Shown one piece after another: positions 4,579 to 62,350 of a stretch of 64,000 nucleotides of DNA. This stretch comes from a bacterium (lineage in GTDB: Bacteria > SAR324 > NAC60-12), in assembly GCA_965233585.1 (NCBI GenBank), contig CBDDTI010000747.1, positions 512,001 to 576,000 of the forward strand, given 5' to 3'. A program made the position numbers and the translations under genes. The notes beneath the pieces are model-generated. The model did not search any database. It was given only the letters and a program-made list of their open reading frames with translations, and had not been told where the DNA came from. Within the stretch, counting starts at the first letter, position 1. Each line of letters opens with the position of its first letter.

Positions 4579-5914
4579 TTAGGGACCAAATTCCCAAACA
4601 TCGTTTTTATTGTCACCACCAATGCTACCACTTCCTCCTAGCACCCAGATTTTGTTGTTAAACAGGATGCTTGTGTGTCCAGCACGAGCAGACCAACCTG
4701 CTGAATCTGTGCTTTGAGTCCAATTCTTGCCATCAGAAGAACTCCAAACATCGTTTTTCCTGCCACCATCATTTCCGCCTAGCACCCAGATTTTGTTGTT
4801 GAACGCAACGCTTCTGTGAAACCCACGAGCAGACCAACCTGCTGCAGAAGTTTCTTTTGTCCAATTCTTACCATCAGAAGAACTCCAAACATCGTTTTTC
4901 TTGTTGCTAGTAGTAAATCCTCCTAGCACCCAGATTTTGTTGTTGAACACGACGCTTGCGTGTCCAGTACGAGCAGACCAACCTGCTGAAGAAGTTTCTT
5001 TTGTCCAATTCTTACCATCAGAAGAACTCCAAACATCGTTTTTGTTGCCACCATCAGAACCTCCTAGTACCCAGATTTTGTTGTTGAACGCAATGCTTGT
5101 GTGTCCAGTACGAGCAGACCAACCTGCTGAAGAAGTTTCTTTTGTCCAAGTTTTACCATCAGAAGAACTCCAAACATCGTTTTTCCTGCTACCATCATCT
5201 CCTCCTAGCACCCAGATTTTGTTATTAAACACAAAGTTTGTGTGCATAGAACGAGCAGACCAACCTGCTGAAGAGGTTTCTTTTGTCCAATTCTTACCAT
5301 CAGAAGAACTCCAAACATCGTTTTTGTTGCCACCATCAGAACCTCCTATGACCCAGATTTTGTTGTTGAACACAACGCTTGTGTGTCCAGCACGAGCAGA
5401 CCAACCTGCTGAAGAGACGATTTGTTTCCAAGTGTATTTGGAAATGTCAAGTTCGTTGTTGACCACTGTAAAATCCCAGTTTGATTCTTTTCTCAAGATG
5501 TTGAACTTGAGTTGCCCCTTGCCTGCTGTAACTCCTGTGAGCTTCAACTTGGCTTGAAATTTTTCTTGTTTGGGTAAGGTGTGGGTGAGTTTTCCGCTTT
5601 GACCGACTGTCTCTTTTTCTCCAACGACCAGTTTCAAGGAAGTCAAACTTTCATCGTAAGTGATGCTTAATTTTTTACCTTGATAGGTTTTTGATGCGGT
5701 GCAGGTGAGGTTGGCAACCAGTTCTTGACCTGTTGTCAAAGAATTGCCAGAGGAGACCTCGCAGGTGGCTTGATTCTGGGTGTTTTCCTCTTCCTCTTCT
5801 TCAGCAGGCGGTGTGCAACCTGCTAAGACCAGAAGTGTCAAGAAAACGATTATCTTGTCATAAAAAGCCCCCCCCTGACAATCGGGATTGAATGGATTTG
5901 ATTTGTTCTAACAT
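4579..5914 (-). CDS. Kelch-repeat (6-blade) lipoprotein; the real start appears frameshifted at a G8 tract
   Basis: Lipobox LAGC; six about 47-aa repeats WSARxGHxSxxFNNKIWVLGG...KNDVWSSSDGKNW. RBS AAGGAG and ATG at 5914 are out of frame by 1 nt across C8 at 5868-5875 (+ strand); the ORF track start is TTG at 5841. Confidence 0.85.
4590..5430 (-). repeat. Intragenic tandem repeats of about 141 bp (Kelch blades)
   Basis: Near-identical units, e.g. ACGAGCAGACCAACCTGCTG and CCATCAGAAGAACTCCAAACATCGTTTTT recurring about every 141-144 bp. Confidence 0.9.
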
Positions 5915-17228: not shown

Positions 17229-18782
17229 ATGAAAAAAAACGCATTTTTTGTGATGACAATATTATCTTTCGCTTTGGTCGCTTGTAATGATGACAAAAGC
17301 GAAGACGATACCAAAGATGCAATCGCTGTGATTGCTTGTGAGTTCAAAGGCTCAAATCAAGTGACGAAAGGCTCAAATATCACAGCCAATTTAGGTTGTG
17401 AAGTGCCTGAAAAGTATCAGGGTTTGGAGCTGACTTTAAAGTATGACACAAGCCTCATTCAGCTGACTGCAGGCGGTGCCACCCAAACATCAGCAGGACA
17501 AGTCACTTACAAATTACCACCCAAAGAAAATTTTGAAAGTGCCTTGACGCTCAAGGGTCTGTCAGCAGGCAAGGGCAAGCTCAACCTCAACGTCAACGAC
17601 CTGTCTGTCAGCTGGGATTATTCTGTCTTGCTTCCTCCCAGAGCCCCCTTTGACAAAATCAGCATCTCCCTTGGAAATACACATAACCTAGCCGTCAAAG
17701 ACGGAGAACTTTGGGCTTGGGGCAACAATGGGTCAGGACAGCTTGGCAATGGTGGGACAGATGAAGTTGATGCACCAACAAAAATTGGAAACTATGCAAT
17801 GGTTGAGGCAGGCATCACTCATAGCGTTGCCATCAGAGAAGACGGGACACTCTGGACTTGGGGAAGTAATGATTCTGGAGAGCTTGGCAATGGAGGGAAA
17901 GATGCTGACAGTGACGGGGATGCTGACAATGTCCTGATGCCTTCCATCATTGGTTCAGACAAAGATTGGAAAACTGTTGCAGCAGCTTCCCATGTATTAG
18001 CAATCAAGACAGACGGGACGCTTTGGGCTTGGGGAAATAATATTTCAGGAAAGCTTGGCAATGGAGGGTTAAATCCCGATAGTGATGGTTTTCCCGCTGA
18101 TGTTTTGACTCCTGCTCAAGTTGGTTCAGACAAAGATTGGAAAAGTGTTGCAGCAGGAGATGAACACTCATTAGCTATCAAGGAAGACGGGACGCTTTGG
18201 GCTTGGGGCAACAATGCGTCAGGACAGCTTGGCAATGGAGGGATAGATGCTGACAGCGACGGGGCTTTTGACAATGTTCTGACGCCTGCTCAAATTGGTT
18301 CAGACAAAGATTGGAAGGCTGCTTTTGCAGGACGCCACTCCAGCTTTGCCATTAAAAAAGACGGGACGCTTTGGGCTTGGGGGTATAATAGACGAGGGCA
18401 ACTTGGTCTTGGCAACACAACAAACCAAAGCTCTCCTGTCAAGGTTGGTACTGCCACCAGCTGGAAAGCCGTTGCGGGAGGCTCTAATGGAGACAATGAA
18501 AGGGCTCACACCATCGGACTCAGAGAAGATGGGACGCTTTGGGCTTGGGGGAATGACTGGAACGGGCAACTTGGCAACGGAGCAGGGCGTACCAACCAGA
18601 CCAGCCCACAACAGATTGGCAGCGACACAGACTGGAAAGCCATTGCCGCAGGCAATGCGGCAAGTATGGCTGTTAAGTCAGATGACAGCTTTTGGACTTG
18701 GGGAAATGATCTTTGGGGTCAAGCAGGCAATGGTGCTGCGTCATCTGACGATGTCCACACTCCTACCAAAATTAATTTTTAA
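17229..18782 (+). CDS. RCC1-repeat beta-propeller lipoprotein
   Basis: RBS AAGGAG then MKKNAFF...LVAC lipobox; about 7 repeats of AIKxDGTLWAWGxNxxGQLGNG. Confidence 0.9.
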   Translation: MKKNAFFVMTILSFALVACNDDKSEDDTKDAIAVIACEFKGSNQVTKGSNITANLGCEVPEKYQGLELTLKYDTSLIQLTAGGATQTSAGQVTYKLPPKENFESALTLKGLSAGKGKLNLNVNDLSVSWDYSVLLPPRAPFDKISISLGNTHNLAVKDGELWAWGNNGSGQLGNGGTDEVDAPTKIGNYAMVEAGITHSVAIREDGTLWTWGSNDSGELGNGGKDADSDGDADNVLMPSIIGSDKDWKTVAAASHVLAIKTDGTLWAWGNNISGKLGNGGLNPDSDGFPADVLTPAQVGSDKDWKSVAAGDEHSLAIKEDGTLWAWGNNASGQLGNGGIDADSDGAFDNVLTPAQIGSDKDWKAAFAGRHSSFAIKKDGTLWAWGYNRRGQLGLGNTTNQSSPVKVGTATSWKAVAGGSNGDNERAHTIGLREDGTLWAWGNDWNGQLGNGAGRTNQTSPQQIGSDTDWKAIAAGNAASMAVKSDDSFWTWGNDLWGQAGNGAASSDDVHTPTKINF

Positions 18783-35501: not shown

Positions 35502-37682
35502 ATGCCACAGACTGTTCTGGTTCTTGAAGAAAGCCAAATTGTTCAAAATCTCATTGCACAAACGTTGAAACGTCATGATTTGGAGACTCATCAAGAACTT
35601 AATCCCCAAAAATTCTCTGATGCTCTTGCAGTTGGAGACCAAGTCCTTGTTCTCATAGACCTCAAACATTATTCTAAAATACAAACGTTATTAAGCTCAA
35701 GTATGCCTGCTGTGGCATTGCTAGATGCCAAGTCTCAAGTGGACAAACAAACGCTTCTTGACATGGGTTTTAAAGGGTGGCTTCGCCGTCCATTTGAGGC
35801 AAAAGACTTGATGAGCCAGATTCGTCTTGCATTGCCCGACCTCCATGCTCATTCGTCTGAAACTCTTTATGAAGAAGCATGCGAAACGCAAGATGTTGCA
35901 GGCGATGAGAAAAGCCTCATTCACAACCTCTTCTATGACCATTCGGAGACATCGCAGAAAGAGTTTGAAACCTTGAATCTTGAAGAAGTGCCAGATTTTG
36001 AAGATGACACGCTTTGTTTGGATAGCGAAGCATTAGAAGATGAACCTCAACTGGATTTTAGGGTGCCAGAATCCAACGAAGTATCGGAAGGTTTAGAGTT
36101 AGATGAGACATTCTCTGACAATTTTGGGACAGATGAAGGTCAAGATATTTTCAATGAAGAGGAGGAAGGTTTGGAGTTAGATGAGACATTCTCTGACAAT
36201 TTTGGAACAGATGAAAGTCAAGATGCTTTCAGTGAAAAAGAAGAAGGTTTGGAGTTAGATGAGACATTCTCTGACAATTTTGGAACAGATGAAAGTCAAG
36301 ATGCTTTCAGTGAAAAAGAAGAAGGTTTGGAATTGGACGAGATGCTTTCTGGCAATTTTGGGGCTGGGGACGAAGAAGACTTACCACAGTTTGATGCCTC
36401 CTCAAGTGAGACGTCACAATTTGAAAATGACATTCAGAGTTCAGTCATTGACGACTCAAATTCTGATTTAAATACCGATACCGATACAGAAGGTGACTTG
36501 TCAGATTTATTTGCAGAGAAAGAACACGGAATGCCTGATGCGATTCGCAAACACAGAGAAATGTCATTTGCTGGTAGCTCTTTGTTTCAAGCACATATTC
36601 CAGAAAAACAAAAGTTAAATCACGGTCTCACAGACATTAAATTGGGGCTGAATGACTTTGAATCAGAAATCAGCATTGATGATTACGACCCAGAACAAGT
36701 GCAATATCTCCGTAGAAGTGTCATGGATATTGTCCTCAATGCCAATGATTTTGACCCAGAAGTCCCTGATATTCCAGAAGAACAAAGTGAGTCTAGCATA
36801 CTAGAAATGGACTCTATGCTTTTGGAACTTGATGAAGATGAAAAATATGCAAACAGGGAATCCCAAAAAGAATCTTTGGAACAGCAAGTCGCAGATTTTG
36901 ATGATTTTGCAAGCCCCCCTGAACCAATGGAAGTTGGAGTTTTTGCCGAAGCAGAACCTTTTGGGTCTTTGAGCGATGAAGTGGAAATCAATATGCAACC
37001 TCAGGCGATGGCAAATTTTTCTCAAGAAGATGACATCAAACATTTGGAAAAGCAGATGCTAGACATGGAGCAAGGTAGCGACGTCCCAACCATAGACTTT
37101 GAAGAAGATGAAGAGTTTGACTTTGGAACAAGCCAACTAGATATTTCAGTGTCTGAAGAAAAGTCTGATGAAGAAGTCAATTTTGATGGCATCAATCCAG
37201 CTGAAACAGAGTCTTTGTCAATGTCTGCTGATGAATTGACTGATGACTTTTTTGAAGGTTCACAACAACTTGAACCTGAAAGTGAAGACGTAACAGACCC
37301 CAGTTTTGGGGTAGATTTTGAAATGCCGAGCAGTTTTGATGAGCAACCAGAGGATTCTGATGAAGTCAGTGGCACTGATGTCAATTTTGGTCAAGGTAGT
37401 GATGCCTTTGCCACAATGAACAGTTTTGATGAACAACCAGAGGCTGATGATGATGAGCTGTCTGTTGGTCTCCATCAAGAAGAAAGTCCCAGATTAGAGC
37501 TTGAGTCCCAAGATTTTCAAAATCCAGAAGCCAATCAATTCATTTTCCAGCCCAATACAAAAGGTTCGTTGGAAACAGCCTTGCAAAGTATGATCTCAAA
37601 CTCTGTGCAACAAGCCTTAAAAGATATGACTCCGCAACTTGTTGAACAAATTGCCAATCAGCTTAACTCACAAAAGGATTAG
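35502..37682 (+). CDS. Receiver domain plus long acidic linker plus C-terminal helix (RomR-like)
   Basis: N-terminal atypical REC domain; about 550 aa D/E-rich disordered region; C-terminal ALKDMTPQLVEQIANQL. Confidence 0.6.
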   Translation: MPQTVLVLEESQIVQNLIAQTLKRHDLETHQELNPQKFSDALAVGDQVLVLIDLKHYSKIQTLLSSSMPAVALLDAKSQVDKQTLLDMGFKGWLRRPFEAKDLMSQIRLALPDLHAHSSETLYEEACETQDVAGDEKSLIHNLFYDHSETSQKEFETLNLEEVPDFEDDTLCLDSEALEDEPQLDFRVPESNEVSEGLELDETFSDNFGTDEGQDIFNEEEEGLELDETFSDNFGTDESQDAFSEKEEGLELDETFSDNFGTDESQDAFSEKEEGLELDEMLSGNFGAGDEEDLPQFDASSSETSQFENDIQSSVIDDSNSDLNTDTDTEGDLSDLFAEKEHGMPDAIRKHREMSFAGSSLFQAHIPEKQKLNHGLTDIKLGLNDFESEISIDDYDPEQVQYLRRSVMDIVLNANDFDPEVPDIPEEQSESSILEMDSMLLELDEDEKYANRESQKESLEQQVADFDDFASPPEPMEVGVFAEAEPFGSLSDEVEINMQPQAMANFSQEDDIKHLEKQMLDMEQGSDVPTIDFEEDEEFDFGTSQLDISVSEEKSDEEVNFDGINPAETESLSMSADELTDDFFEGSQQLEPESEDVTDPSFGVDFEMPSSFDEQPEDSDEVSGTDVNFGQGSDAFATMNSFDEQPEADDDELSVGLHQEESPRLELESQDFQNPEANQFIFQPNTKGSLETALQSMISNSVQQALKDMTPQLVEQIANQLNSQKD
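36087..36362 (+). repeat. 78-bp (26 aa) intragenic tandem repeat, about 3.5 copies
   Basis: EGLELDETFSDNFGTDE(G/S)QD.. units starting at 36087, 36165, 36243, 36321. Confidence 0.9.
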
Positions 37683-39141
37683 TTTGGACATTCCATCTCT
37701 TTCTGACCCGCAAAAAGCGGCACAAACCATCTTTGAGCAACGTCTGGGAATCAGCGAACAGCTCATACGCAAAACCTTACAAACTGCCCTAAGTAGCTCT
37801 GGGAGCTTCGCAGAACTGTATTTTCAATACACACTTTCTGAATCTGTTGTTTTAGAAGAAAACCTTGTCAAGAGTTCATCTCAATCATTGGCAATGGGAG
37901 TGGGTATTAGAGTTTTGAAAGGAGAACAGACAGGTTATGCCTATTCTGAATCTTTTGATGAACGTTCTATGCAGAAAGCGGCATCAAGTGCGGCACAAAT
38001 TGCGTCAGGTGGACGTGTCAACCTTGATGATGCACAAATCTTTAATCAATCTGTCCCTAAAAACTATTACTCTGTTCAGCAGACCATTCACGACCTTCAA
38101 CTTGCTGAAAAGATTCGTTACTTGCGAATCATGGAACAAGAAGCACAGGCGTTTGATGAGCGGATTACAAAAATCACTGCCACTTTTTCCAATTCTCTTG
38201 AGTTCATACAAATTGTCAACTCCAATGGTCTATTTCTGCGAGATTCCAAGCCGATGTTTCGCATGTATGCACAATGCCTTGCACAAGAAAAAGACAATAG
38301 GCAGGTTGCAGGTTCGGGGGTTGGGGGACGCGTGGGATTAGACTTTCTCCAACAAAAAGATCATGCGATTCAGATTGCCAAAGAAGCCGCAAGTCGTGCA
38401 ACTCTGCTACTGGAAGCACAACAAGCCCCATCAGGGACGTTGCCTGTGGTACTTGGGGCAGGACAATCAGGAATCCTTTTGCATGAGGCAATCGGACACC
38501 CTCTTGAAGCTGATTTTAACCGAAAAGGTTCGTCTGCATACAGTGGAAGAATTGGAGAAAAAGTGGCATCAGACCTTTGTACAATCTATGATTCAGGGCA
38601 ATTTGAATACGATAGGGGGGCTATCAATTTTGATGACGAAGGCAACTTCCCCAAAGAAACGGTACTTATTGAAAATGGTATCCTCAGAGGATACATGCAA
38701 GACCACATCAGCGCACAAAGCTATCAAGTCAAGCCTTCAGGAAATGGAAGACGAGAATCCTTTGCCCACTATCCTTTGCCCCGAATGACAACAACCTATC
38801 TGAATGCAGGTAAATCTGACCCTGATGAAATCATTGCCAGTGTGGAAAAAGGTGTCTACTGTGAATCTTTTAGTGGCGGACAGGTGAATATTTCCAATGG
38901 AGATTTTGTTTTTGTGCCTGTCATTGCTTATATGATTGAACAAGGTAAGAAGACAGTCCCCATTAAAAATTTTACCTTAATAGGCAATGGACCTGATGTG
39001 ATGACCAAGCTGGTCATGGCAGGAAATGACTTTAAACTCAGTGAAGGGATTTGGACGTGTGGCAAAGATGGACAAGGTGTCCCTGTGGGTGTTGGGCTAC
39101 CTACTGTTTTGATCTCAGAAATGACGATTGGGGGCGCCTAA
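37639..39141 (+). CDS. tldD: TldD metalloprotease
   Basis: GVGIRV, LLHEAIGHPLEADFNRKG, GNGRRES, PRMT, CGKDGQGVPVGVG; exact start uncertain. Confidence 0.93.
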   Translation: MLNKLPISLTHKRISLDIPSLSDPQKAAQTIFEQRLGISEQLIRKTLQTALSSSGSFAELYFQYTLSESVVLEENLVKSSSQSLAMGVGIRVLKGEQTGYAYSESFDERSMQKAASSAAQIASGGRVNLDDAQIFNQSVPKNYYSVQQTIHDLQLAEKIRYLRIMEQEAQAFDERITKITATFSNSLEFIQIVNSNGLFLRDSKPMFRMYAQCLAQEKDNRQVAGSGVGGRVGLDFLQQKDHAIQIAKEAASRATLLLEAQQAPSGTLPVVLGAGQSGILLHEAIGHPLEADFNRKGSSAYSGRIGEKVASDLCTIYDSGQFEYDRGAINFDDEGNFPKETVLIENGILRGYMQDHISAQSYQVKPSGNGRRESFAHYPLPRMTTTYLNAGKSDPDEIIASVEKGVYCESFSGGQVNISNGDFVFVPVIAYMIEQGKKTVPIKNFTLIGNGPDVMTKLVMAGNDFKLSEGIWTCGKDGQGVPVGVGLPTVLISEMTIGGA

Positions 39142-39148
39142 AAACAGT

Positions 39149-39856
39149 ATGCAAACCATAGCAGAGTTGAATTTAGAGACTCGCATCAGGCAAAATGAAT
39201 ATACAGGTCGTGGTATTGTCATTGGCAGAAATTCTCAAGGACATTGGGTTCAAATTTACTGGATCTCAGGTAGGAGTTCAAATAGCCACAACCGTTGTCT
39301 AGTTGCCGAAGGGAGTGATTTACACGTCCAAACCATTAAACCCGAGATTGAACGTCCAGACTTGTTAGTTTATCGTGCTATGAGGGAGTCGGGGAGGCGT
39401 TACATCGTGTCAAATGGTCAGCACACTGACGCCATTTTTGAATCTGTGAAGGCTGGGAAGACAGTCGGAACAGGTCTTAAAAGATTTCAATATGAAGATG
39501 ACGAACCTCATTTTACACCGCGTATCGCAGGCTATTTGGATTGGTCTGGGTCAGAACCACTGTTGATGTTGGTCATTCTTAAAAAACACCCTCAATCCTC
39601 TGTATTGTTAAGGCAATTTTTTCTCTATGACAGTGTTCCATTAGGCTATGGCTATTGCCTCACCACCTATCAAGAAAATAGCAATCCTCTTGCTTCTTTT
39701 GAAGGCGAACCCTTTCTTGTGCCACTTTCAGGGGACGCTAACAGCATCTTGAAACAATATTGGCAGGCACTCAATCCAACTACAAAAATTGCTCTTGCTA
39801 CCAAAACAATAGACTCACAAAGTCAGTCTTCAATTTTCATTGAGAATAAATATTGA
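39149..39856 (+). CDS. IMP cyclohydrolase-like protein (PurO/Ntn-hydrolase type)
   Basis: YTGRGIVIG, YWISGRSSNSHNR, IVSNGQHTD, YEDDEPHFTPRIAG. Confidence 0.8.
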   Translation: MQTIAELNLETRIRQNEYTGRGIVIGRNSQGHWVQIYWISGRSSNSHNRCLVAEGSDLHVQTIKPEIERPDLLVYRAMRESGRRYIVSNGQHTDAIFESVKAGKTVGTGLKRFQYEDDEPHFTPRIAGYLDWSGSEPLLMLVILKKHPQSSVLLRQFFLYDSVPLGYGYCLTTYQENSNPLASFEGEPFLVPLSGDANSILKQYWQALNPTTKIALATKTIDSQSQSSIFIENKY

Positions 39857-39912: not shown

Positions 39913-39986
39913 GGCGATGTGGCCGAGCGGTTAGGCAGAGGTCTGCAAAACCTTCTACACCGGTTCAAATCCGGTCGTCGCCTCCA
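39913..39986 (+). tRNA. tRNA-Cys (GCA)
   Basis: GGCGATG...CGTCGCC acceptor stem, anticodon loop CTGCAAA, GGTTCAAATCC T-arm, encoded CCA. Confidence 0.95.
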
Positions 39987-40001
39987 CACTTCAACTTTTC
40001 T

Positions 40002-40085
40002 GCCCGGGTGGCGAAATTGGTAGACGCACAGGACTTAAAATCCTGTGTCCGCAAGGGCGTGCCGGTTCGATTCCGGCCCCGGGTA
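40002..40085 (+). tRNA. tRNA-Leu (TAA)
   Basis: GCCCGGG...CCCGGGT acceptor stem, CAGGA-CTTAAAA-TCCTG anticodon arm, long variable arm, GGTTCGATTCC; no encoded CCA. Confidence 0.95.
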
Positions 40086-40176
40086 GTTTCAGCCAAGATT
40101 CCCCAACAAAAAATAGTGGACACAGGCAGGATTGAGCAGAATCATAGTTGAAGTAGCACAGCATAAGTGCATCAGG

Positions 40177-41820
40177 TTATTCATCACCAATGATGGAAGC
40201 CTCAGGCTCTAATTGCTCAATTTCCTCCTTTAGCTTATCGGCTTGGGCTTGTAGCTCGGCAATTTGTTGCTCTAGGGCTTGTTGTTGCTCTGCAGCAATT
40301 TGTTGCAGTATGTCGGGGTCTTTCTCATACAGTTTCAATAGCTCATAGTCGCTGCTTTCATGCAGAGTTTGCAAGGCTTCAATCAGCTCCAGCAGGCGTA
40401 TTTGCAAGCTCTGATACATCTGCTCTAGGGCATGCAGGTTGGATTCCTCGCCAAGCTCTATGGTTTGCCAGCCCTGCTGTTGAATAAACTGTTCGGGGTT
40501 GGCGGCTATCTCCTCTAACAGGGCCAAGTCGCCTTCATCTCTGGCATGGTTAATCACCGCCATGAGCTTTTGGTAGGTCTCCATTTTTTCGGGGTCATTG
40601 TGGTGGCGGTCGGGGTGAAACAGGCGGATGAGCTTGTTCCACAAGGGTTTGATAGCTTTTTTTTGTTCATCAGTTAAGTTCTTTTTGCCACTGGCAGCTT
40701 GCTCGGCTTGCTCTTGCTCTTGTTCGGCTTGCTCTTGCTCTTGTTGAAATGGCTCGTTGAGAGACTCTGCCTCCTCCATACCCTGCTGCATTAAAACATC
40801 TAGGTATTGACTGCGGTAATAAACTATCTGCTGGAGCTTGTTGCGTTTGTGGTGGTAGTGGCTGACCTGTAAAAACAGCTTGGCTTTGAGGGCATCTACG
40901 GCGTTTTTGTCGGTAGTGTATTGTGCCTCTAGCTCAGCTAAACGGTTGCGCAGATTGTTGATAAGGGCTTCTAGCTCTTGTTTTCGTTGCGTGCCATACA
41001 CGGTTAAACTGGTGACATTGCTTGGGCTGGATGTGGGGGTAGATGAGGGATCAAGGGCAATGAATTCTGCCAGTGCCTCCAGTTGTGTCAAATACCATTT
41101 GCCCATCGCTTGGCTACGTTCGTTGTTTGATGAGGCTAACCACTCCAGCCAATCTTTTAGTGCTTGATGACTGCGTGCCTCGCGAAAATCACAGCCCTTA
41201 TATTTTCCAAACGCCAAACGACTGGGATACCAAGGTTGCTGGCAAAAATCCACCACCGCCTGCCAAGTGTTTAGCTCTCGTTGGTCGGCTAGGGGTTGCA
41301 ACACTTGCTGCAGCAGGTCAATCACCGTTTGCACATCGTCTAAGGCAGTGTTTGTACCTCGCTCAGATAGGCGGTAAAACTGCCTTAAAGTTTGTAATTT
41401 GCAGTTGCCTGCGGCGACTGGGTCTAACAAACGTCTAGTGAGTTCCAAGGCACAAAAGCCGCGTCTGCCAATGGGTGCAATACCTAACCGTTGCCATTCG
41501 GGGGTGAGTACTTGGTTTAGGTCGTAGTTTAGGTTGTAGGTTACCAGCGGTGCATCAGCTACATACTGCCTCAATGCCTCGTGTACTTCGCTGGGTGGGT
41601 TGCCATCTCGTTCTAAAATCTCCCTTGTGTAACCGTTTGTGCGAGAGGCTTCGGGCGGTATAGCGGCATCGTGGTTTAATAATTGCCTAAACGGTTCTCC
41701 CACTGCTTGCCAGCCACACATAGTTTGGGCAGCGATCTCTAGGGCAAAAACGGGTCGCTTAAAGCCGGTGGTTTCGGTATCTAATAAGACCCATTTGGTG
41801 TTGTTTATCGGGGGAGTCAT
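40177..41820 (-). CDS. DEDD (DnaQ-like) 3'-5' exonuclease fused to a coiled coil and a DnaJ J-domain
   Basis: LDTETTG (Exo I), YNLNYD (Exo II), TNTALDD (Exo III), AFGKYKG motif, long coiled coil, KLIRLFHPDR J-domain. Confidence 0.88.
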   Translation of the reverse strand: MTPPINNTKWVLLDTETTGFKRPVFALEIAAQTMCGWQAVGEPFRQLLNHDAAIPPEASRTNGYTREILERDGNPPSEVHEALRQYVADAPLVTYNLNYDLNQVLTPEWQRLGIAPIGRRGFCALELTRRLLDPVAAGNCKLQTLRQFYRLSERGTNTALDDVQTVIDLLQQVLQPLADQRELNTWQAVVDFCQQPWYPSRLAFGKYKGCDFREARSHQALKDWLEWLASSNNERSQAMGKWYLTQLEALAEFIALDPSSTPTSSPSNVTSLTVYGTQRKQELEALINNLRNRLAELEAQYTTDKNAVDALKAKLFLQVSHYHHKRNKLQQIVYYRSQYLDVLMQQGMEEAESLNEPFQQEQEQAEQEQEQAEQAASGKKNLTDEQKKAIKPLWNKLIRLFHPDRHHNDPEKMETYQKLMAVINHARDEGDLALLEEIAANPEQFIQQQGWQTIELGEESNLHALEQMYQSLQIRLLELIEALQTLHESSDYELLKLYEKDPDILQQIAAEQQQALEQQIAELQAQADKLKEEIEQLEPEASIIGDE

Positions 41821-43145
41821 CGGATCACCTCTACCTCATCATCGCAACCCAGCCATTTTAAGTTAGGGTTTTGGGAGACATCTAGTGCCGTGAGTTGGTT
41901 GTACTCGCACCACAGCCGTTCTAAGTTAGGGTTTTGGGAGACATCTAGTGCCGTGAGTTGGTTGTCCTCGCACCACAGCTCTTGTAAGTTAGGGTTTTGG
42001 GAGACATCTAGTGCCGTGAGTTGGTTCCTTCTGCAATCCAGCCGTTCTAAGTTAGGGTTTTGGGAGACATCTAGTGCCGTGAGTTGGTTCCTTCTGCAAT
42101 CCAGCCGTTCTAAGTTAGGGTTTTGGGAGACATCTAGTGCCGTGAGTTGGTTGCTTATGCAATCCAGCCGTTCTAAGTTAGGGTTTTGGGAGACATCTAG
42201 TGCCGTGAGTTGGTTGCTTCTGCACCGCAGACATTCTAAGTTAGGGTTTTGGGAGACATCTAGTGCCGTGAGTTGGTTGTACTCGCACCACAGCCGTTCT
42301 AAGTTAGGGTTTTGGGAGACATCTAGTGCCGTGAGTTGGTTGTCCTCGCACCACAGCCGTTCTAAGTTAGGGTTTTGGGAGACATCTAGTGCCGTGAGTT
42401 GGTTCCTTCTGCACCACAGCTCTTGTAAGTTAGGGTTTTGGGAGACATCTAGTGCCGTGAGTTGGTTGTCCTCGCACCACAGCCGTTCTAAGTTAGGGTT
42501 TTGGGAGACATCTAGTGCCGTGAGTTGGTTCCTTCTGCAATCCAGCCGTTCTAAGTTAGGGTTTTGGGAGACATCTAGTGCCGTGAGTTGGTTGCTTCTG
42601 CAATCCAGCCGTTCTAAGTTAGGGTTTTGGGAGACATCTAGTGCCGTGAGTTGGTTGTCCTCGCACCACAGCCGTTCTAAGTTAGGGTTTTGGGAGACAT
42701 CTAGTGCCGTGAGTTGGTTGTCCTCGCAATCCAGCCGTTCTAAGTTAGGGTTTTGGGAGACATCTAGTGCCGTGAGTTGGTTGCTTCTGCAATCCAGCCG
42801 TTCTAAGTTAGGGTTTTGGGAGACATCTAGTGCCGTGAGTTGGTTGGGGGTTTTGGAACCCGCTTCATTGCCACATTTGAGAATTTGCAGATTGGGATAG
42901 CGGCTCACATCCAGTTCGGTCAGCCCTTGGTCGCTGACATCCAGCTCCGTCACGCTGTAGTCCAAATGCTCGGCGACTTGGCTACTTTTTTGAACTAAGG
43001 CACGGGCGCGTGCTAGGGCATCGTTGGCGACCTCGTCTATATGCCGTTGAGCTGCCGGGCTGAGGCTTGGTTGGCTGCTTTGGCGAACAACAGGCAGTTG
43101 TTGGTCTGCTTTGTGGGTATGATCGCTGTTTTCATCACTGTTCAT
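41817..43145 (-). CDS. Cytoplasmic leucine-rich-repeat protein with 16 near-identical 21-aa repeats
   Basis: 16 x NQLTALDVSQNPNLxxLxCxx; RBS AGGAG upstream; stop overlaps the next ATG (ATGA). Confidence 0.93.
   Translation of the reverse strand: MNSDENSDHTHKADQQLPVVRQSSQPSLSPAAQRHIDEVANDALARARALVQKSSQVAEHLDYSVTELDVSDQGLTELDVSRYPNLQILKCGNEAGSKTPNQLTALDVSQNPNLERLDCRSNQLTALDVSQNPNLERLDCEDNQLTALDVSQNPNLERLWCEDNQLTALDVSQNPNLERLDCRSNQLTALDVSQNPNLERLDCRRNQLTALDVSQNPNLERLWCEDNQLTALDVSQNPNLQELWCRRNQLTALDVSQNPNLERLWCEDNQLTALDVSQNPNLERLWCEYNQLTALDVSQNPNLECLRCRSNQLTALDVSQNPNLERLDCISNQLTALDVSQNPNLERLDCRRNQLTALDVSQNPNLERLDCRRNQLTALDVSQNPNLQELWCEDNQLTALDVSQNPNLERLWCEYNQLTALDVSQNPNLKWLGCDDEVEVIR
41838..42845 (-). 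repeat. 16 x 63-bp coding tandem array (42 bp invariant plus 21 bp variable)
   Basis: Invariant + strand block TAAGTTAGGGTTTTGGGAGACATCTAGTGCCGTGAGTTGGTT with exact 63-bp period. Confidence 0.97.
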
Positions 43146-43223
43146 AGTTTAGCTCCTGTTAGGTTGATGTGAGTCGGTCTGTTGGTGATAGAGTCAATTC
43201 AGAAAGGTTTTGTTAGGGAATAC

Positions 43224-49612: not shown

Positions 49613-50179
49613 TTACAAAACCCCTAAAATCAAAACTGGAATATCAATGTCTGAAACACCTCTTTTTTCTAAATCCCAGACAAATTGTTCAAAATAAGAA
49701 ACTCCTGATGACATTTCATCGGCTAGTTCTTTAATCGGAACAATTTCTATGCCTGCATCAATAATGTTCAGCTTCTTAAAGATAGTCATCTTTGCACAGA
49801 CGTTATAAACCATAAACGCATACTTTCCAAATTGCACTTCAACTCCTAGTCTTTCTTTCACAAAATCCATATCTCTAAATGCACCTTGTTTTAAAGGTTT
49901 AGGTTGATAATTTTTTGTGTAATATTGTGTTGGGTAGTTACATTTTTCTTTATGATTGTGCCAATTTCTAGCTGAAAAATATTTTTTAAATTCTTGATTT
50001 AACATAGCAGGACTGTACAGTAGTTTGCCCTGCATTGTTTTCTCTTGACTTATTTTATCTTTGCACTTCTCAGAATCTACACATTGAACGACTTCATAAG
50101 TTTGACTCAACAATTCTGCAAAGTGATTTTGAATAAACTCCTTACCACCATTAAAGCTAAATTCTCCAGCAACAATCAT
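49613..50179 (-). CDS. BglII/BstYI-family type II restriction endonuclease
   Basis: DFVKERLGVEVQFGKYAFMVYN, GIEIVP, SSGVSYFEQ; ATG 50179 overlaps the MTase stop (alternative start 50188). Confidence 0.85.
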   Translation of the reverse strand: MIVAGEFSFNGGKEFIQNHFAELLSQTYEVVQCVDSEKCKDKISQEKTMQGKLLYSPAMLNQEFKKYFSARNWHNHKEKCNYPTQYYTKNYQPKPLKQGAFRDMDFVKERLGVEVQFGKYAFMVYNVCAKMTIFKKLNIIDAGIEIVPIKELADEMSSGVSYFEQFVWDLEKRGVSDIDIPVLILGVL

Positions 50180-51096
50180 AAGCTCCACTGCAATGGAAAT
50201 TGTGCGACTTTTTCGGTACCACTTGGCTGATGGATGGGTTTCCCGATTGGTCTTATTCTCAGGTTTCCCGAAAGAAATTGCTCAACTCTTTGCTTGGCAA
50301 TAGAGCAATACCTCTCTTCTTTTTCAACGCAAACAGGTAACCGATGATGCTTCAAACAAGCAATAGCAGTACTTCCTACCCCACCAAAGGGGTCTAGAAC
50401 CATATCATGTTTGTTGGTAAAAGCTAGGATGCAACGTTCCACTAACTCTATTGGGAATTGACAAGGGTGTTCTGTTTTTTCAGGGTGATTAGACTTGACG
50501 TTGGGAATATCAATCATACCTAAATCAAACTCTGTTTGAAGTAGCTCCCAATAATCTGATGGGTTTTTACCCTTTGGGTTTCCGCTTAATTCTCCTTTTC
50601 TTTTGCCTTTAAAATGTCGTTTCCCGGGATATTTTGAGGGAATACGGACTTCATCTAAATTGAAGATATAATTCTCATTTTTAGAAAACCAAAGCAAAGT
50701 TTCATAGCGTCCAGAAAGTCTTTTTTGTGCATGTAACCCATGGTTAAAGTGCCAAATGATACGGTTTCTTAACTGTAAACCTAGCTTTTTAAAAATGGGG
50801 TAAAAATACATATCCAGAGGAAAGATTTCCCCTTTTTCAACATAATTTCCCACTTGCCAACAAAAACTTCCTGTTGGCTTCAGTTTGGGAACAAGTTGAG
50901 AGATAATTGATTCTTGCCAAGCTAAATAATTTGCTAAAGACGTTTTTTCTTCGTAGTTTTTACCGACATTATAAGGAGGAGAAGTGATAATCAGCTGAAA
51001 TTGACCATCAGCAAAATCTTTGATTTTTTCTTCTATTTCTCCTTGAAAAATAGATTGGCTTTCATCAAAAAAACAACTCTGCATTGTCAAAATCAA
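50176..51096 (-). CDS. N4-cytosine-type DNA methyltransferase (beta class), cognate of the adjacent REase
   Basis: TSPPYN catalytic motif, HPCQFP, LDPFGGVGST SAM motif. Confidence 0.92.
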   Translation of the reverse strand: MILTMQSCFFDESQSIFQGEIEEKIKDFADGQFQLIITSPPYNVGKNYEEKTSLANYLAWQESIISQLVPKLKPTGSFCWQVGNYVEKGEIFPLDMYFYPIFKKLGLQLRNRIIWHFNHGLHAQKRLSGRYETLLWFSKNENYIFNLDEVRIPSKYPGKRHFKGKRKGELSGNPKGKNPSDYWELLQTEFDLGMIDIPNVKSNHPEKTEHPCQFPIELVERCILAFTNKHDMVLDPFGGVGSTAIACLKHHRLPVCVEKEERYCSIAKQRVEQFLSGNLRIRPIGKPIHQPSGTEKVAQFPLQWSL

Positions 51097-59689: not shown

Positions 59690-62350
59690 ATGGATGACAT
59701 GTTAAAAAAGCGGATGCTCATCAATGCAGAATATGATGAGACACGCATTGCAATAGTAGAAAATCAAAGACTAGAAAATTTTTACTTTGAAAAAATAGAG
59801 CAACACAGAAGGCGCGATAACATTTATTGTGCGGTTGTTGAAACGATTGAACCCTCTTTGCAAGCGGTGTTCATTAATTATGGTGGAAGAAGGCATGGCT
59901 TTTTGGCAATAGATGATGTCAATTTTGCTGCGCTTGGCATTGTGCAAGAGCCTCAAACAACTCTTAAAATTCAGGATATTCTCAAGATTGGGCAAAAAGT
60001 TTTAGTGCAAGGTCTGCGAGATGAAATTGGCAACAAATGTGCCTCTTTTTCAATGAATTTAAAGTTGCGTGGACGGTTCATGATTTTTTTGCCACACCAG
60101 AGGAACGGGATTGTCTCCAAAAAAATTACTGACCCCCAAGAACATCAACGTCTGAAGATTTTTATTGAGGGTTTAAAAAACTCTCATCAAGATTCCTCCG
60201 CTATCATTCGTTCCGTTTCAGAGGGGCGGAGTCTGTCTGACTTGAAAAAAGATTTTATTGCTTTGCAAGGTCAGTATCAAACCATCTGCCAGCAATTTTC
60301 CAAAGCAAGGGGTGGTTCTTTGCTTCAGCAGGAAGCAAGCACTGCGATACGCATCTTGCGTGAAGATTTTTCAGAAACTATGACAGAAGTTTGTGTTGAC
60401 CACCCTGAAACTTTTCAAGACGTCCAATATTTCTTCAAACAACACCTTCCTAAATACCAAAAGAACGTCAAACTTTATCTGGGGAATCGTTCTATTTTCA
60501 CAGAGTATGGAATTGAAAGGCAGGTTGAAGCCTTACAGTCTAGTCAGGTAGCGTTGCCCTCGGGTGGTGGAATTGTGATAGACCAGACGGAGGCGCTGGT
60601 TGCGATTGATGTCAATTCAGGCTCTGCACGACAAGGAGACTCTGTTGAAGAAACCGCCATTCGTACTAATCTTGAGGCAGTAGAAGAGATTGCCAAGCAG
60701 TTGCGGTTGCGAAATTTGGGCGGTTTGGTGGTCGTGGACTTCATTGATATGCGTTCTCCTGCCAATCGTAAAGAAGTTGTTGAGGCAATGCGGCTTGCAA
60801 CAAAAAGAGACCGCGCTCAGTTTAAACTTGGTGGAATTTCTAAGTTTGGCTTGTTTGAGATGAGTCGTCAACGCATGGACAGTAGTGTCATGCAAAATGT
60901 CCAAAACAGATGTCCAGCCTGTCGTGGTACAGGACTACAACCCACGTCTGAAACCAATGCAAATGATGTGTTGCGAAAAATCAGAGAAATTGCAGCACTA
61001 GAGCAGGTTATAAAAATTAAGGTCTTTGTTGACCATACTTTAGCAAGCCATTTGTTTAACTATAAACGTTCACATCTTGAAGAAATTGAATTGGCAAGCG
61101 GGGTGCAAGTCCTTTGGGAAATCAAGACACCTGATCTTTTGAATGGACAGACCATTTTTGAGTTTTTGCGTGCAGGGCAAAGCAGATACAAACAATTCGT
61201 TTTCCGAGATAAGCCTTTGCCCGCCCTTCCTAAAACTACTACACCTGAACATGACCCCGTTGAAAAAAAATTACCGGAGCCACCAGTCCCTAAAATACCT
61301 CACTTAAAGATCGTTTCAGAACAGACAGAAATTCCAAGTAAAAAGGAGGTTCCTACCCAAGAACAAACGTTGCAAATTCTTCCCTTCCCCCAAGAAAAGC
61401 AAGAGAAAGCAACGCCTCCAAAGACTGAAGAACGCATTCAAGTCATCTCTCAAGAAAAGACAGAATCAGCTCCGAACGAGGTCAAATCTGGCAAACTTTT
61501 TTCAAGTGTCCATCGTCCCTATCCTGAAGATGCAGTTCCCCTTCCTAAAATTCCTGAAAAGCAAAACCAGTGGCAGGACGTTCCTATCTTTACAACCATT
61601 TATCGCAGCGAACATCAAGAAGAAAACACTACCCAAGCACCTTTGATTGAAGCGATTGAAGATGAAGAGGCTCTGGCTAAACCTAAAAAGAAGGCAGTCA
61701 AAGCACCAACTAGAACAAAGAAGAAAGCAGATGCTTCCCCTGAAACAACAGAAGTCAATGCTGATGTGGTTCAACATAAGCAAACACCCGTTGAAGCCAA
61801 ACTTGATGAGTCTGTTCAAGCACCTTTGATTGAAGCGATTGAAGATGAAGAGGCTCTGGCTAAACCTAAAAAGAAGGCAGTCAAAGCACCAACTAGAACA
61901 AAGAAGAAAGCAGATGCTTCCCCTGAAACAACAGAAGTCAATGCTGATGTGGTTCAACATAAGCAAACACCCGTTGAAGCCAAACTTGATGAGTCTGTTC
62001 AAGCACCTTTGATTGAAGCGATTGAAGATGAAGAGGCTCTGGCTAAACCTAAAAAGAAGGCAGTCAAAGCACCAACTAGAACAAAGAAGAAAGCAGATGC
62101 TTCCCCTGAAACGACAGCAGTCAACGTTGATAGCAGTGCCTTAGCTGAACAAGCAACTGCTGAAACCAAACTTGATGAGTCTGTTCAAGCACCTTTGATT
62201 GAAGCGATTGAAGATGAAGAGGCTCTGGCTAAACCTAAAAAGAAAAAAACAACTACTGTTAAAAAAGAGGACAAACCTAAGAAGAAAGCAACCAGTAGAA
62301 AGAAAAAAACGGCATCTGATGACTCTGTTGCTGATGAAAAAAACTCATGA
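59690..62350 (+). CDS. rne: Ribonuclease E/G family with a long disordered C-terminus
   Basis: MLINA...ETRIAIV, S1 domain, TEALVAIDVNSG, LRLRNLGGLVVVDFIDM, CPACRGTG. Confidence 0.93.
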   Translation: MDDMLKKRMLINAEYDETRIAIVENQRLENFYFEKIEQHRRRDNIYCAVVETIEPSLQAVFINYGGRRHGFLAIDDVNFAALGIVQEPQTTLKIQDILKIGQKVLVQGLRDEIGNKCASFSMNLKLRGRFMIFLPHQRNGIVSKKITDPQEHQRLKIFIEGLKNSHQDSSAIIRSVSEGRSLSDLKKDFIALQGQYQTICQQFSKARGGSLLQQEASTAIRILREDFSETMTEVCVDHPETFQDVQYFFKQHLPKYQKNVKLYLGNRSIFTEYGIERQVEALQSSQVALPSGGGIVIDQTEALVAIDVNSGSARQGDSVEETAIRTNLEAVEEIAKQLRLRNLGGLVVVDFIDMRSPANRKEVVEAMRLATKRDRAQFKLGGISKFGLFEMSRQRMDSSVMQNVQNRCPACRGTGLQPTSETNANDVLRKIREIAALEQVIKIKVFVDHTLASHLFNYKRSHLEEIELASGVQVLWEIKTPDLLNGQTIFEFLRAGQSRYKQFVFRDKPLPALPKTTTPEHDPVEKKLPEPPVPKIPHLKIVSEQTEIPSKKEVPTQEQTLQILPFPQEKQEKATPPKTEERIQVISQEKTESAPNEVKSGKLFSSVHRPYPEDAVPLPKIPEKQNQWQDVPIFTTIYRSEHQEENTTQAPLIEAIEDEEALAKPKKKAVKAPTRTKKKADASPETTEVNADVVQHKQTPVEAKLDESVQAPLIEAIEDEEALAKPKKKAVKAPTRTKKKADASPETTEVNADVVQHKQTPVEAKLDESVQAPLIEAIEDEEALAKPKKKAVKAPTRTKKKADASPETTAVNVDSSALAEQATAETKLDESVQAPLIEAIEDEEALAKPKKKKTTTVKKEDKPKKKATSRKKKTASDDSVADEKNS
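61634..62244 (+). repeat. 183-bp (61 aa) tandem repeat, about 3.3 copies, in the RNase E scaffold region
   Basis: Units start at 61634, 61817, 62000, 62186: QAPLIEAIEDEEALAKPKKKAVKAPTRTKKKADASPETT... Confidence 0.93.

Follow-up and report, generated by a model that had tools for sequence, protein, structure and literature searches.

The locus described here raises the question of what a bacterial leucine-rich repeat (LRR) array belongs to when its units share one scaffold at the DNA level and differ in a handful of codons. The array lies within a 64,000-nucleotide stretch of a SAR324 bacterium (contig CBDDTI010000747.1, positions 512,001 to 576,000; assembly GCA_965233585.1), which is hereafter called the window, and it is part of a gene encoding a 442-aa LRR protein. 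The stop codon of this gene overlaps the start of a second gene (ATGA) in an operon-like arrangement, and the product of the second gene, hereafter the exonuclease/J protein, combines a DEDDh exonuclease domain with a long coiled coil and a J-like domain. An earlier note on this DNA had treated the array alone as the feature of interest; what it missed were the coupled exonuclease/J gene and an N-terminal leader on the LRR protein, which explain what the array belongs to. We present evidence that the exonuclease/J protein is the constant component of a two-gene module whose partners, across genomes, are leader-tagged heads of many folds. On the basis of sequences, structural models and analogy, we consider it an even proposition that the module is a cytoplasmic sensor-effector defence system whose array diversifies like the repeats of fungal NOD-like receptors (NLRs).

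The exonuclease/J family comprises 1168 matches, the best 120 of which span 534-617 aa. At 80 genome loci of this family, 55 upstream open reading frames (ORFs) on the same strand were scanned, short, truncated and opposite-strand calls having been dropped. According to Pfam, the heads of these upstream partners are LRR (30), Sel1 (15), FGE-sulfatase (3), receiver (3), and TPR, WG repeat and PTS EIIA (one each), whereas one partner has none. A leader of about 40 residues is common to the upstream partners, and a profile of it was built from 46 of them. A leader gene is located at most 200 nt upstream in 56 of the 66 genome loci having at least 1.5 kb of upstream sequence (44 were profile seeds). 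For held-out genome loci, the leader gene was adjacent in 12 of 22 and present anywhere in the locus in 18 of 22; for independent metagenome loci it was adjacent in 14 of 21, which brings the held-out loci overall to 26 of 43. Control loci encoding a generic DEDDh protein contained it in 0 of 55 cases, the 56th control being a broken family member. Another 21 leader genes were scanned, 13 of which have a Pfam head (receiver 6, FGE 3, Sel1 2, LRR 1, Hsp70 substrate-binding domain 1), and the Hsp70 substrate-binding domain is encoded without the ATPase (L070:4487-5017). A quick tree built from 58 exonuclease/J proteins requires 17 changes of head class, and for LRR at least eight changes are forced by starred branches. 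The pairing was found in free-living Verrucomicrobiota and Pseudomonadota. Judged by these sequence comparisons, the pairing of the exonuclease/J gene with leader-tagged heads of many folds is a property of the family. Some loci contain two leader-tagged genes (L016, L029, L061, L063, L086, L105, L010 and L013), in some cases with heads of different type or with the exonuclease/J gene lying between the two.

The leader of the LRR protein of the window is a diverged member. It scored 11.2 bits against a second-round profile built without it, above all of 2000 shuffled sequences (best 9.7). A sequence search with residues 1-100 of the LRR protein returned almost only LRR matches and did not recover the leader, and among 135,363 six-frame segments of the source genome (G000) no other leader-tagged gene was detected (best 11.6 bits). 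Most LRR partners of other loci (e.g., L012, L016, L033, L035 and L046) have an extra domain after the leader, with the motif RFRIG...EPDYRQIL.WA. This domain is missing in the window protein, which suggests an independent LRR fusion here.

Structural modelling supports binding of the leader to the coiled coil of the exonuclease/J protein. The complex modelled consisted of the exonuclease/J protein of the window and residues 8-63 of the LRR protein. It obtained a score of 0.67, and the best of three controls 0.01; 116 of 157 solved complexes attained the score mark, as did 2 of 215 mismatched pairs, a calibration that is rough here since our own alignments were used. The model runs agreed in at least 62% of contacts, and the predicted local distance difference test (pLDDT) of the partner was at least 57. 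In the model, the leader helix sits in a groove formed by residues 311-323 (including F316), 368-376 and 490-512, which flanks the J-like domain, and leader residues I36, V39, A40, A43, L44 and A47 pack around F316. No complex resembling it was present among the PDB matches of the partner. No counterpart of the leader was detected in the partner either (hhalign probability 0.1%), so that the predicted docking would be heterotypic.

All five DEDDh residues of the exonuclease/J protein are kept in at least 56 of 57 relatives. In the model, helices 384-400 and 410-428 flank the HPD motif of the J-like domain, and PDB fold matches with E<0.001 cover the DnaQ domain only. The protein shares its fold and the D-E-D-D residues with DnaQ/epsilon-type DEDDh exonucleases and with Cas2-DEDDh, but differs from these in being fused to a long coiled coil and a J-like domain, and in having an Asn for the His in this copy. 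In PADLOC and NCBIfam, names exist for the DEDDh and LRR parts only, and PADLOC has no model of the whole module; a protein atlas contains two unnamed clusters of 90 members with RNase_T as the sole domain. No match to the exonuclease/J protein was obtained in plasmid or phage collections; two IMG/VR viral contigs (L180 and L181) carry the gene, L180 together with a leader and an FGE-like partner. The coiled coil of this copy contains a 21-nt duplication (EQEQEQA-type; window positions 40698-40745). The features of both genes are collected in Table 1.

Table 1. Features of the two-gene module and of the adjacent tRNA genes (window positions).
Feature	Position	Strand	Basis or remark
442-aa LRR protein: leader, one degenerate LRR and 16 IRREKO LRRs	41817..43145	minus	ORF, domain scans
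AGGAG Shine-Dalgarno-like site, 7 nt ahead of the LRR start	43153..43157	minus	sequence
Diverged family leader (residues 17-51)	42993..43097	minus	helix with a predicted docking site on the exonuclease/J protein
Degenerate first LRR and linker (residues 65-100)	42846..42953	minus	sequence, model
LRR array, 16 x 63-nt units	41838..42845	minus	nt 1-42 invariant; codons 15, 16, 18, 20, 21 vary
Unit 2 (ERLDCED)	42720..42782	minus	recombinant: left half D-type, right half E-type; not among listed read pieces
Unit 7 (QELWCRR)	42405..42467	minus	recombinant: left half W-type, right half R-type; on X1 contig piece, depth 8
547-aa DEDDh exonuclease / long coiled coil / J-like domain (HPD) protein	40177..41820	minus	
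DnaQ-fold DEDDh domain (residues 11-169)	41314..41790	minus	D14, E16, D100, D162 retained
Codon 157: Asn in place of His	41350..41352	minus	His in 57/57 aligned relatives
Coiled-coil residues 311-323 incl. invariant F316, predicted leader-binding groove (with 368-376, 490-512)	40852..40890	minus	model
J-like helical hairpin, HPD at 402-404	40501..40674	minus	HPD invariant in 57/57 relatives
tRNA-Leu	40001..40086	plus	90 nt from islet end
tRNA-Cys	39913..39986	plus	

How did the array obtain its present form? Following the units from 42845 to 41838, nt 1-42 are the same in 16 of 16, and codons 17 (Leu) and 19 (Cys) are likewise invariant, which gives 16 invariant codons; in register, all 16 units read L-xx-L-x-C-xx-N-Q-L-TA-L-D-V-SQ-N-PN. 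The earlier note had stated that the 14 scaffold codons are identical at the DNA level, without synonymous change, and that all variation is limited to the segment xxLxCxx. Both statements were confirmed on the sequence, since no codons other than the five given in Table 1 differ, and the 16 cassettes, ten of them distinct, are exactly those it listed. The five variable codons require at least 20 minimal substitution steps in 15 variable nt. The 16 invariant codons show no synonymous change over 11.7 synonymous sites, where 15.6 changes are expected at an equal per-site rate (P of none, 2e-7, or 2e-5 when units 10 and 16 are left out). Pairwise codon differences between units are 342 non-synonymous vs 5 synonymous, and the proportion of non-synonymous differences (pN) at codons 16, 18, 20 and 21 is 0.515, compared with a synonymous proportion (pS) of 0.057. 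This comparison of substitution rates among the units bears out the proposal that the scaffold is homogenised while amino acids diversify.

Units of the array have recombined with each other. There are two main haplotypes, ERLDCR(S/R) and ERLWCE(D/Y), with two crossovers between them. A four-gamete test of D/W (codon 18) against R/E (codon 20) gave counts of 6, 1, 1 and 6, so that 2 of 14 units are recombinant, and all four gametes were also found for ER/QE against R/E. Each of the 36 incompatible site pairs spans the Cys codon (19), where the breakpoint is located. Parallel mutation is unlikely because the alleles differ by 2-3 nt (multi-nucleotide alleles, GAT/TGG and AGA/GAG). The intragenic recombination put forward previously is thereby upheld; the accompanying claim, that left and right halves recur in different combinations, needs narrowing, since reassortment is real yet limited in extent to these two crossovers. 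A diversity-generating retroelement target was considered and rejected, because there are 17 invariant A columns, the variation includes patterns not compatible with A, and no template repeat is present.

The array had also been likened to two other combinatorial systems, the transcription activator-like effectors (TALEs) and the variable lymphocyte receptors (VLRs). TALE repeats are helical, comprise 33-35 residues and use one di-residue per base, and lamprey VLRs are assembled from donor LRR cassettes elsewhere in the genome. The likeness consists of near-identical repeats with a few hypervariable residues, and VLRs are LRRs themselves (weak PDB matches). We found no evidence for a TALE-like code of one letter per repeat, the unit being a 21-residue beta-solenoid LRR and not a DNA-binding helical repeat. 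Assembly in the manner of VLRs also fell away, as blastn and tblastn searches of G000 (assembly 92% complete) matched this array only, revealing neither a library of donor cassettes nor a second array; a single off-array 15-mer match in G000 is at chance level. No orthologous copy of the array was found in other strains.

In register, the unit is LxxLxCxxNxLxxLDVxxNxx, which corresponds to the consensus of IRREKO@LRR subtype 2. As given in the accessible part of PMC2946307, this consensus has 21 residues, LxxLxCxxNxLxxLDLxx(N/L/x)xx, with V or I allowed at position 16. InlJ is the best PDB match by sequence (phmmer E 4e-58), and it is also the top Foldseek match of the predicted structure (3bz5, root-mean-square deviation 1.4 Å), which has a pLDDT of 90.7 overall and of about 98 across the array. 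As far as the accessible text of PMC2946307 goes, the 21-residue unit, the nested 10+11 periodicity and the cysteine ladder are shared with IRREKO@LRR subtype 2 and Listeria InlJ, and intracellular IRREKO members without a signal peptide were noted as well (Matsushima 2010). The protein of the window is unlike these in its DNA-identical scaffold, the absence of a surface anchor, and the leader and coupled exonuclease/J gene. Assignment to the class 1 internalin InlJ itself was rejected (NCBIfam model 268 bits vs a cut-off of 1700; no signal peptide). The variable residues had been described as exposed strand positions. In the model, the strand of each unit is formed by codons 16-18, in agreement with this description, and codons 20-21 lie in the loop that follows; standard LRR geometry, as presented in the available portions of PMC2946307 and PMC9525666, would place codons 16 and 18 on the concave face and 20-21 at its edge.

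Is the pattern unique to this array? The LRR homologues numbered 6989 among 8000 candidates. The 120 listed homologues were used for scoring, two being dropped with fewer than six units by the pattern used, and 118 of 118 show stronger conservation of the scaffold than of the five variable positions. Scaffold modal frequency is about 0.9 or more in 23 of the 118, and all 14-mers are identical in none. At the DNA level, the scaffold difference is 0.000 here vs 0.115-0.502 in 20 partner arrays from related loci. Within G000, a kelch-type array (C746:485859-487487) has 10 scored units with 35 of 47 codons invariant, 0 synonymous-only codons and an N/S of 248/15, and an ankyrin array in a signal-peptide protein (C747:1066891-1068363) has 8 units with 22 of 33 codons invariant; other repeat arrays of G000 do show synonymous change. 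Uniqueness can thus not be maintained, the protein pattern being family-wide and the DNA pattern recurring in the kelch and ankyrin arrays. Sequence comparison identifies the repeat pattern by itself as ordinary for the IRREKO LRR class.

By analogy, the evolution of the array comes closest to two described processes: concerted evolution combined with diversifying selection, known from the NLR repeats of fungi, and the shuffling of LRR exons in Ectocarpus. According to the accessible part of PMC4986451, fungal NLR repeats of high internal conservation (Podospora HNWD WD40, ANK and TPR) undergo concerted evolution, repeat shuffling and diversifying selection at 3-5 binding-face positions per repeat, and the corresponding part of PMC3341825 describes exon shuffling of Ectocarpus ROCO LRRs. 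High internal identity, diversified codons of the presumed binding face and recombination between units are found in our array too. It differs from both in being a bacterial IRREKO LRR, without a STAND NTPase or ROCO GTPase, and in having putative sensor and effector on two genes; neither gene gave a Pfam or NCBIfam match to a STAND NTPase.

The module was also compared with its genomic surroundings. GC content of the pair is about 0.49-0.50, vs 0.402 ± 0.033 for the genome (3 of 1534 windows are as high), and GC content at third codon positions (GC3) is 0.53-0.56, vs 0.26-0.41 in 13 neighbouring genes. At E<=1e-30, none of 87 other genomes of the phylum, many of them incomplete, gave a match to the exonuclease/J gene, and the flanking lysC is present in 35 of 40 relatives. 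Because of the foreign GC and GC3, the nearby tRNA-Leu, the absence from the 87 phylum genomes and the retention of lysC in relatives, the pair is, by these sequence criteria, a horizontally acquired islet. No direct repeat of at least 9 nt that could be an attachment site is present at the islet ends. In 9 of 9 relatives examined there is no tRNA within 1.5 kb of lysC, and an empty site could therefore not be demonstrated. A promoter and terminator scan of the islet gave results at chance level.

The neighbours of the family elsewhere are in keeping with a role in defence. Defence-specific PADLOC matches were found within 5 kb in 9 of 36 long loci and in 0 of 24 control loci (Fisher p=0.006). 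These nine loci contain CRISPR I-F (L013), DISARM (L022), BREX (L040), Druantia (L048), a methyltransferase (L032) and PDC candidates (L038, L049, L051 and L058); seven more proteins, whose matches were to generic ATPase, ThiF or desulfurase models, were left uncounted, and the controls contained one generic UvrD. The LRR protein is likely cytoplasmic as judged from its sequence, in which no signal peptide, transmembrane or hydrophobic segment or anchor domain was found, and DnaK is present in G000.

A possible mechanism of such a defence system would be as follows. The concave LRR face (codons 16 and 18, with 20 and 21 at its edge) would bind an invader molecule, for instance a phage protein. 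Units would frequently undergo unequal exchange or conversion, by which a single scaffold sequence spreads along the array; at the binding codons, diversifying or balancing selection would meanwhile keep several alleles in place, a regime known from the NLR repeats of fungi. The N-terminal leader would dock the LRR head onto the coiled coil of the exonuclease/J protein, and ligand binding, together with DnaK recruited via the HPD motif, would remodel the complex and turn on the 3'-5' exonuclease; in this copy, with H157N, the output may be reduced or routed through the J-domain. We propose more tentatively, and at somewhat less than even chances, that the family is a plug-in immune receptor, in which the leader would let any binding domain dock on one chaperone-gated nuclease and, in this copy, the LRR head would rewrite its binding face by recombination among its own repeats, as a bacterial counterpart of shuffling fungal NLRs and VLR-type receptors; the docking tag would then be portable.

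Conflict systems with a comparable layout have been described. In the accessible parts of Kaur et al. (2020, PMC7159879; 2021, PMC8195603), EAD/bDLD systems have small N-terminal adaptors on variable heads (FGS, TPR, receiver and repeats) beside a constant core, with chaperone components in some, and in the systems of PMC8195603, FGE, TPR and receiver domains serve as heads or effectors; the heads of the family are of fold types that conflict systems employ for recognition. The module differs from these, as far as those parts go, in having no MoxR/vWA, GTPase or STAND core, and its leader and partner are not homotypic, unlike the EAD adaptors. The word exonuclease is absent from the main texts of PMC7159879, PMC8195603 and PMC10907252, the main text of the last one also lacking LRR and DnaJ, and in the accessible part of PMC12803255 DnaJ occurs only in connection with bNACHT25. 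No published description of the two-gene module was found in the literature, a scope that did not include the source-data tables (neighbourhoods) of Kaur et al. and subscription-only papers.

Several observations weigh against a defence system with a diversifying array. When only named systems are counted, the enrichment is 5 of 36 vs 0 of 24 (p=0.07). The control loci are shorter and of housekeeping type, kin among the loci are not independent, and 27 of 36 loci have no defence-specific neighbour. Receiver, PTS EIIA and Hsp70 substrate-binding heads are not obviously invader sensors. The window leader obtained a non-significant 4.4 bits against the round-one profile, and conservation at the predicted interface does not exceed that of the remaining coiled coil (0.62 vs 0.61, p=0.35). 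The His of DEDDh exonucleases acts as the general base, and H157N is likely to weaken or kill the nuclease of this copy, which moreover forms a long branch (1.37, quick tree) and has deviant residues at conserved positions, such as Y369, aligned to Q, beside the 21-nt duplication. Three of eight shorter matches look like nuclease-less J/coiled-coil forms (P0392 and P0394, which start at profile position 275-276, and the distant P0396), so that the family may be able to do without its nuclease. In partner LRR arrays, pN at the variable positions exceeds pS in only 16 of 28, many being near saturation. Finally, the read evidence, consisting of Logan contigs of four runs from two samples of one study and possibly the assembly's own source, revealed no allelic variation, contigs of this type dropping rare variants.

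Some of these observations suit a split, specialised J-domain co-chaperone, in which the leader plugs client-binding heads into a J-protein that hands its own or foreign clients to DnaK, the exonuclease being accessory or binding nucleic-acid ends. The HPD motif is kept here even though H157 was lost, one head is an Hsp70 substrate-binding domain (L070), DnaK is encoded in G000, nuclease-less forms appear to exist, and the leader is predicted to dock next to the J-domain, on the flanking coiled coil, and not on the nuclease. On the other hand, conservation of the five DEDDh residues places the nuclease under selection in the family, and the short nuclease-less matches may be truncated gene calls. 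In addition, Pfam DnaJ does not match this copy (it is precomputed on 5 of the 120 listed relatives), J helix I is not clear in the model, and diversification of the heads fits an arms race better than housekeeping. We regard this explanation as rather unlikely, though the strongest of the alternatives, and it would overlap with the defence reading if the clients were phage proteins.

The substitution at H157, the long branch, the deviant residues and the weak leader match would also be accounted for by a decaying relic, in which a recent neutral burst of unit duplication or slippage made the scaffold uniform and the variable codons are tolerated surface positions; the same surface positions vary in all 118 homologues. 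Both ORFs are intact, however, the 20 steps against no synonymous change are not neutral by the probabilities given above, the multi-nucleotide alleles, at 7:7, are old and balanced, and the leader is still predicted to dock, which makes decay improbable. Even less probable is a host-directed role, as an InlJ-like adhesin or effector of a symbiont that diversifies against an animal host. InlJ is indeed the closest structure, many homologues have secretion or surface domains, and the genome is rich in kelch, ankyrin and beta-propeller repeat genes, with animal-looking contigs binned along; the LRR protein nevertheless lacks the means of secretion and anchoring listed above, and free-living Verrucomicrobiota and Pseudomonadota have likewise retained the coupling to a cytoplasmic nuclease/J protein.

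The read contigs contain no alternative letters at the array. A 43-nt scaffold piece has a depth of 73.5 vs 4.0 for the flanks in run X3 (about 18x) and of 38.2 vs 3.0-3.3 in run X4 (about 12x), ratios that are too noisy for counting units. In run X1, three pieces match unitigs predicted from the assembly, with depths of 9, 25.8 and 8 for multiplicities of 1, 3 and 1 (flanks 5.2-8.0), two pieces are longer than the assembly predicts, and the four ER/QE x R/E gametes (QELWCRR, QELWCED, ERLDCRR and ERLWCED) are each on a listed piece. None of the four runs gives any depth in the bin of the piece unique to unit 11 (ERLDCIS), and units 10 (ECLRCRS) and 2 have no piece among those listed, 96 further pieces being outside the listing. 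Read support covers neither the unit order nor these three singleton cassettes. That the perfect scaffold or the unit order is an artefact of assembly or polishing is scarcely credible: the longest exact repeat inside the array is 121 nt, order and singletons are without read confirmation and the runs may be the source of the assembly, but the single scaffold piece has about 12-18x flank depth, cassette pieces including both QE-W recombinant partners have depths that fit the assembly, and the independent kelch array has an equal pattern.

Other features of the window and of G000 were recorded along the way. A PurO-like gene (archaeal-type IMP cyclohydrolase; 39128-39856) is located beside the tRNAs, and a BglII-like endonuclease and adenine methyltransferase pair (49613-51096; GC3 0.26-0.31), 6.5 kb from the module, constitutes a second acquired defence locus. 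Further coding tandem repeats are present at 4633-5415, 17829-18389, 36087-36361 and 61634-62244, with periods of 141, 174, 78 and 183 nt, respectively. Three contigs of G000 make up 2.5 of 12 Mb, next to 744 others, and many small contigs (e.g., C564, C324 and C12) look eukaryotic, with non-coding tandem repeats, C2H2 zinc fingers and TPR/WD40 arrays; C12 contains a 17-unit WD40 array whose high internal identity resembles fungal or animal NLRs. Foreign DNA thus probably accounts for part of the assembly size of 12 Mb.

The LRR class and the evolutionary regime of the array are of kinds already known, and it is the two-gene, leader-docked architecture that appears to be undescribed. The interest of the locus is therefore in the module, in which a constant nuclease/J protein is paired with leader-tagged heads; from genome to genome these heads change fold, and within a gene they diversify through recombination of repeats. 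As a defence system, the module would represent a type of receptor that has no STAND switch and is apparently gated by Hsp70, and bacterial LRR sensing would become directly testable with two genes. If it is instead a split co-chaperone, it would offer a new route to reprogramming the clients of DnaK. On either reading, the predicted pair of leader and coiled coil would be a small, testable docking tag.

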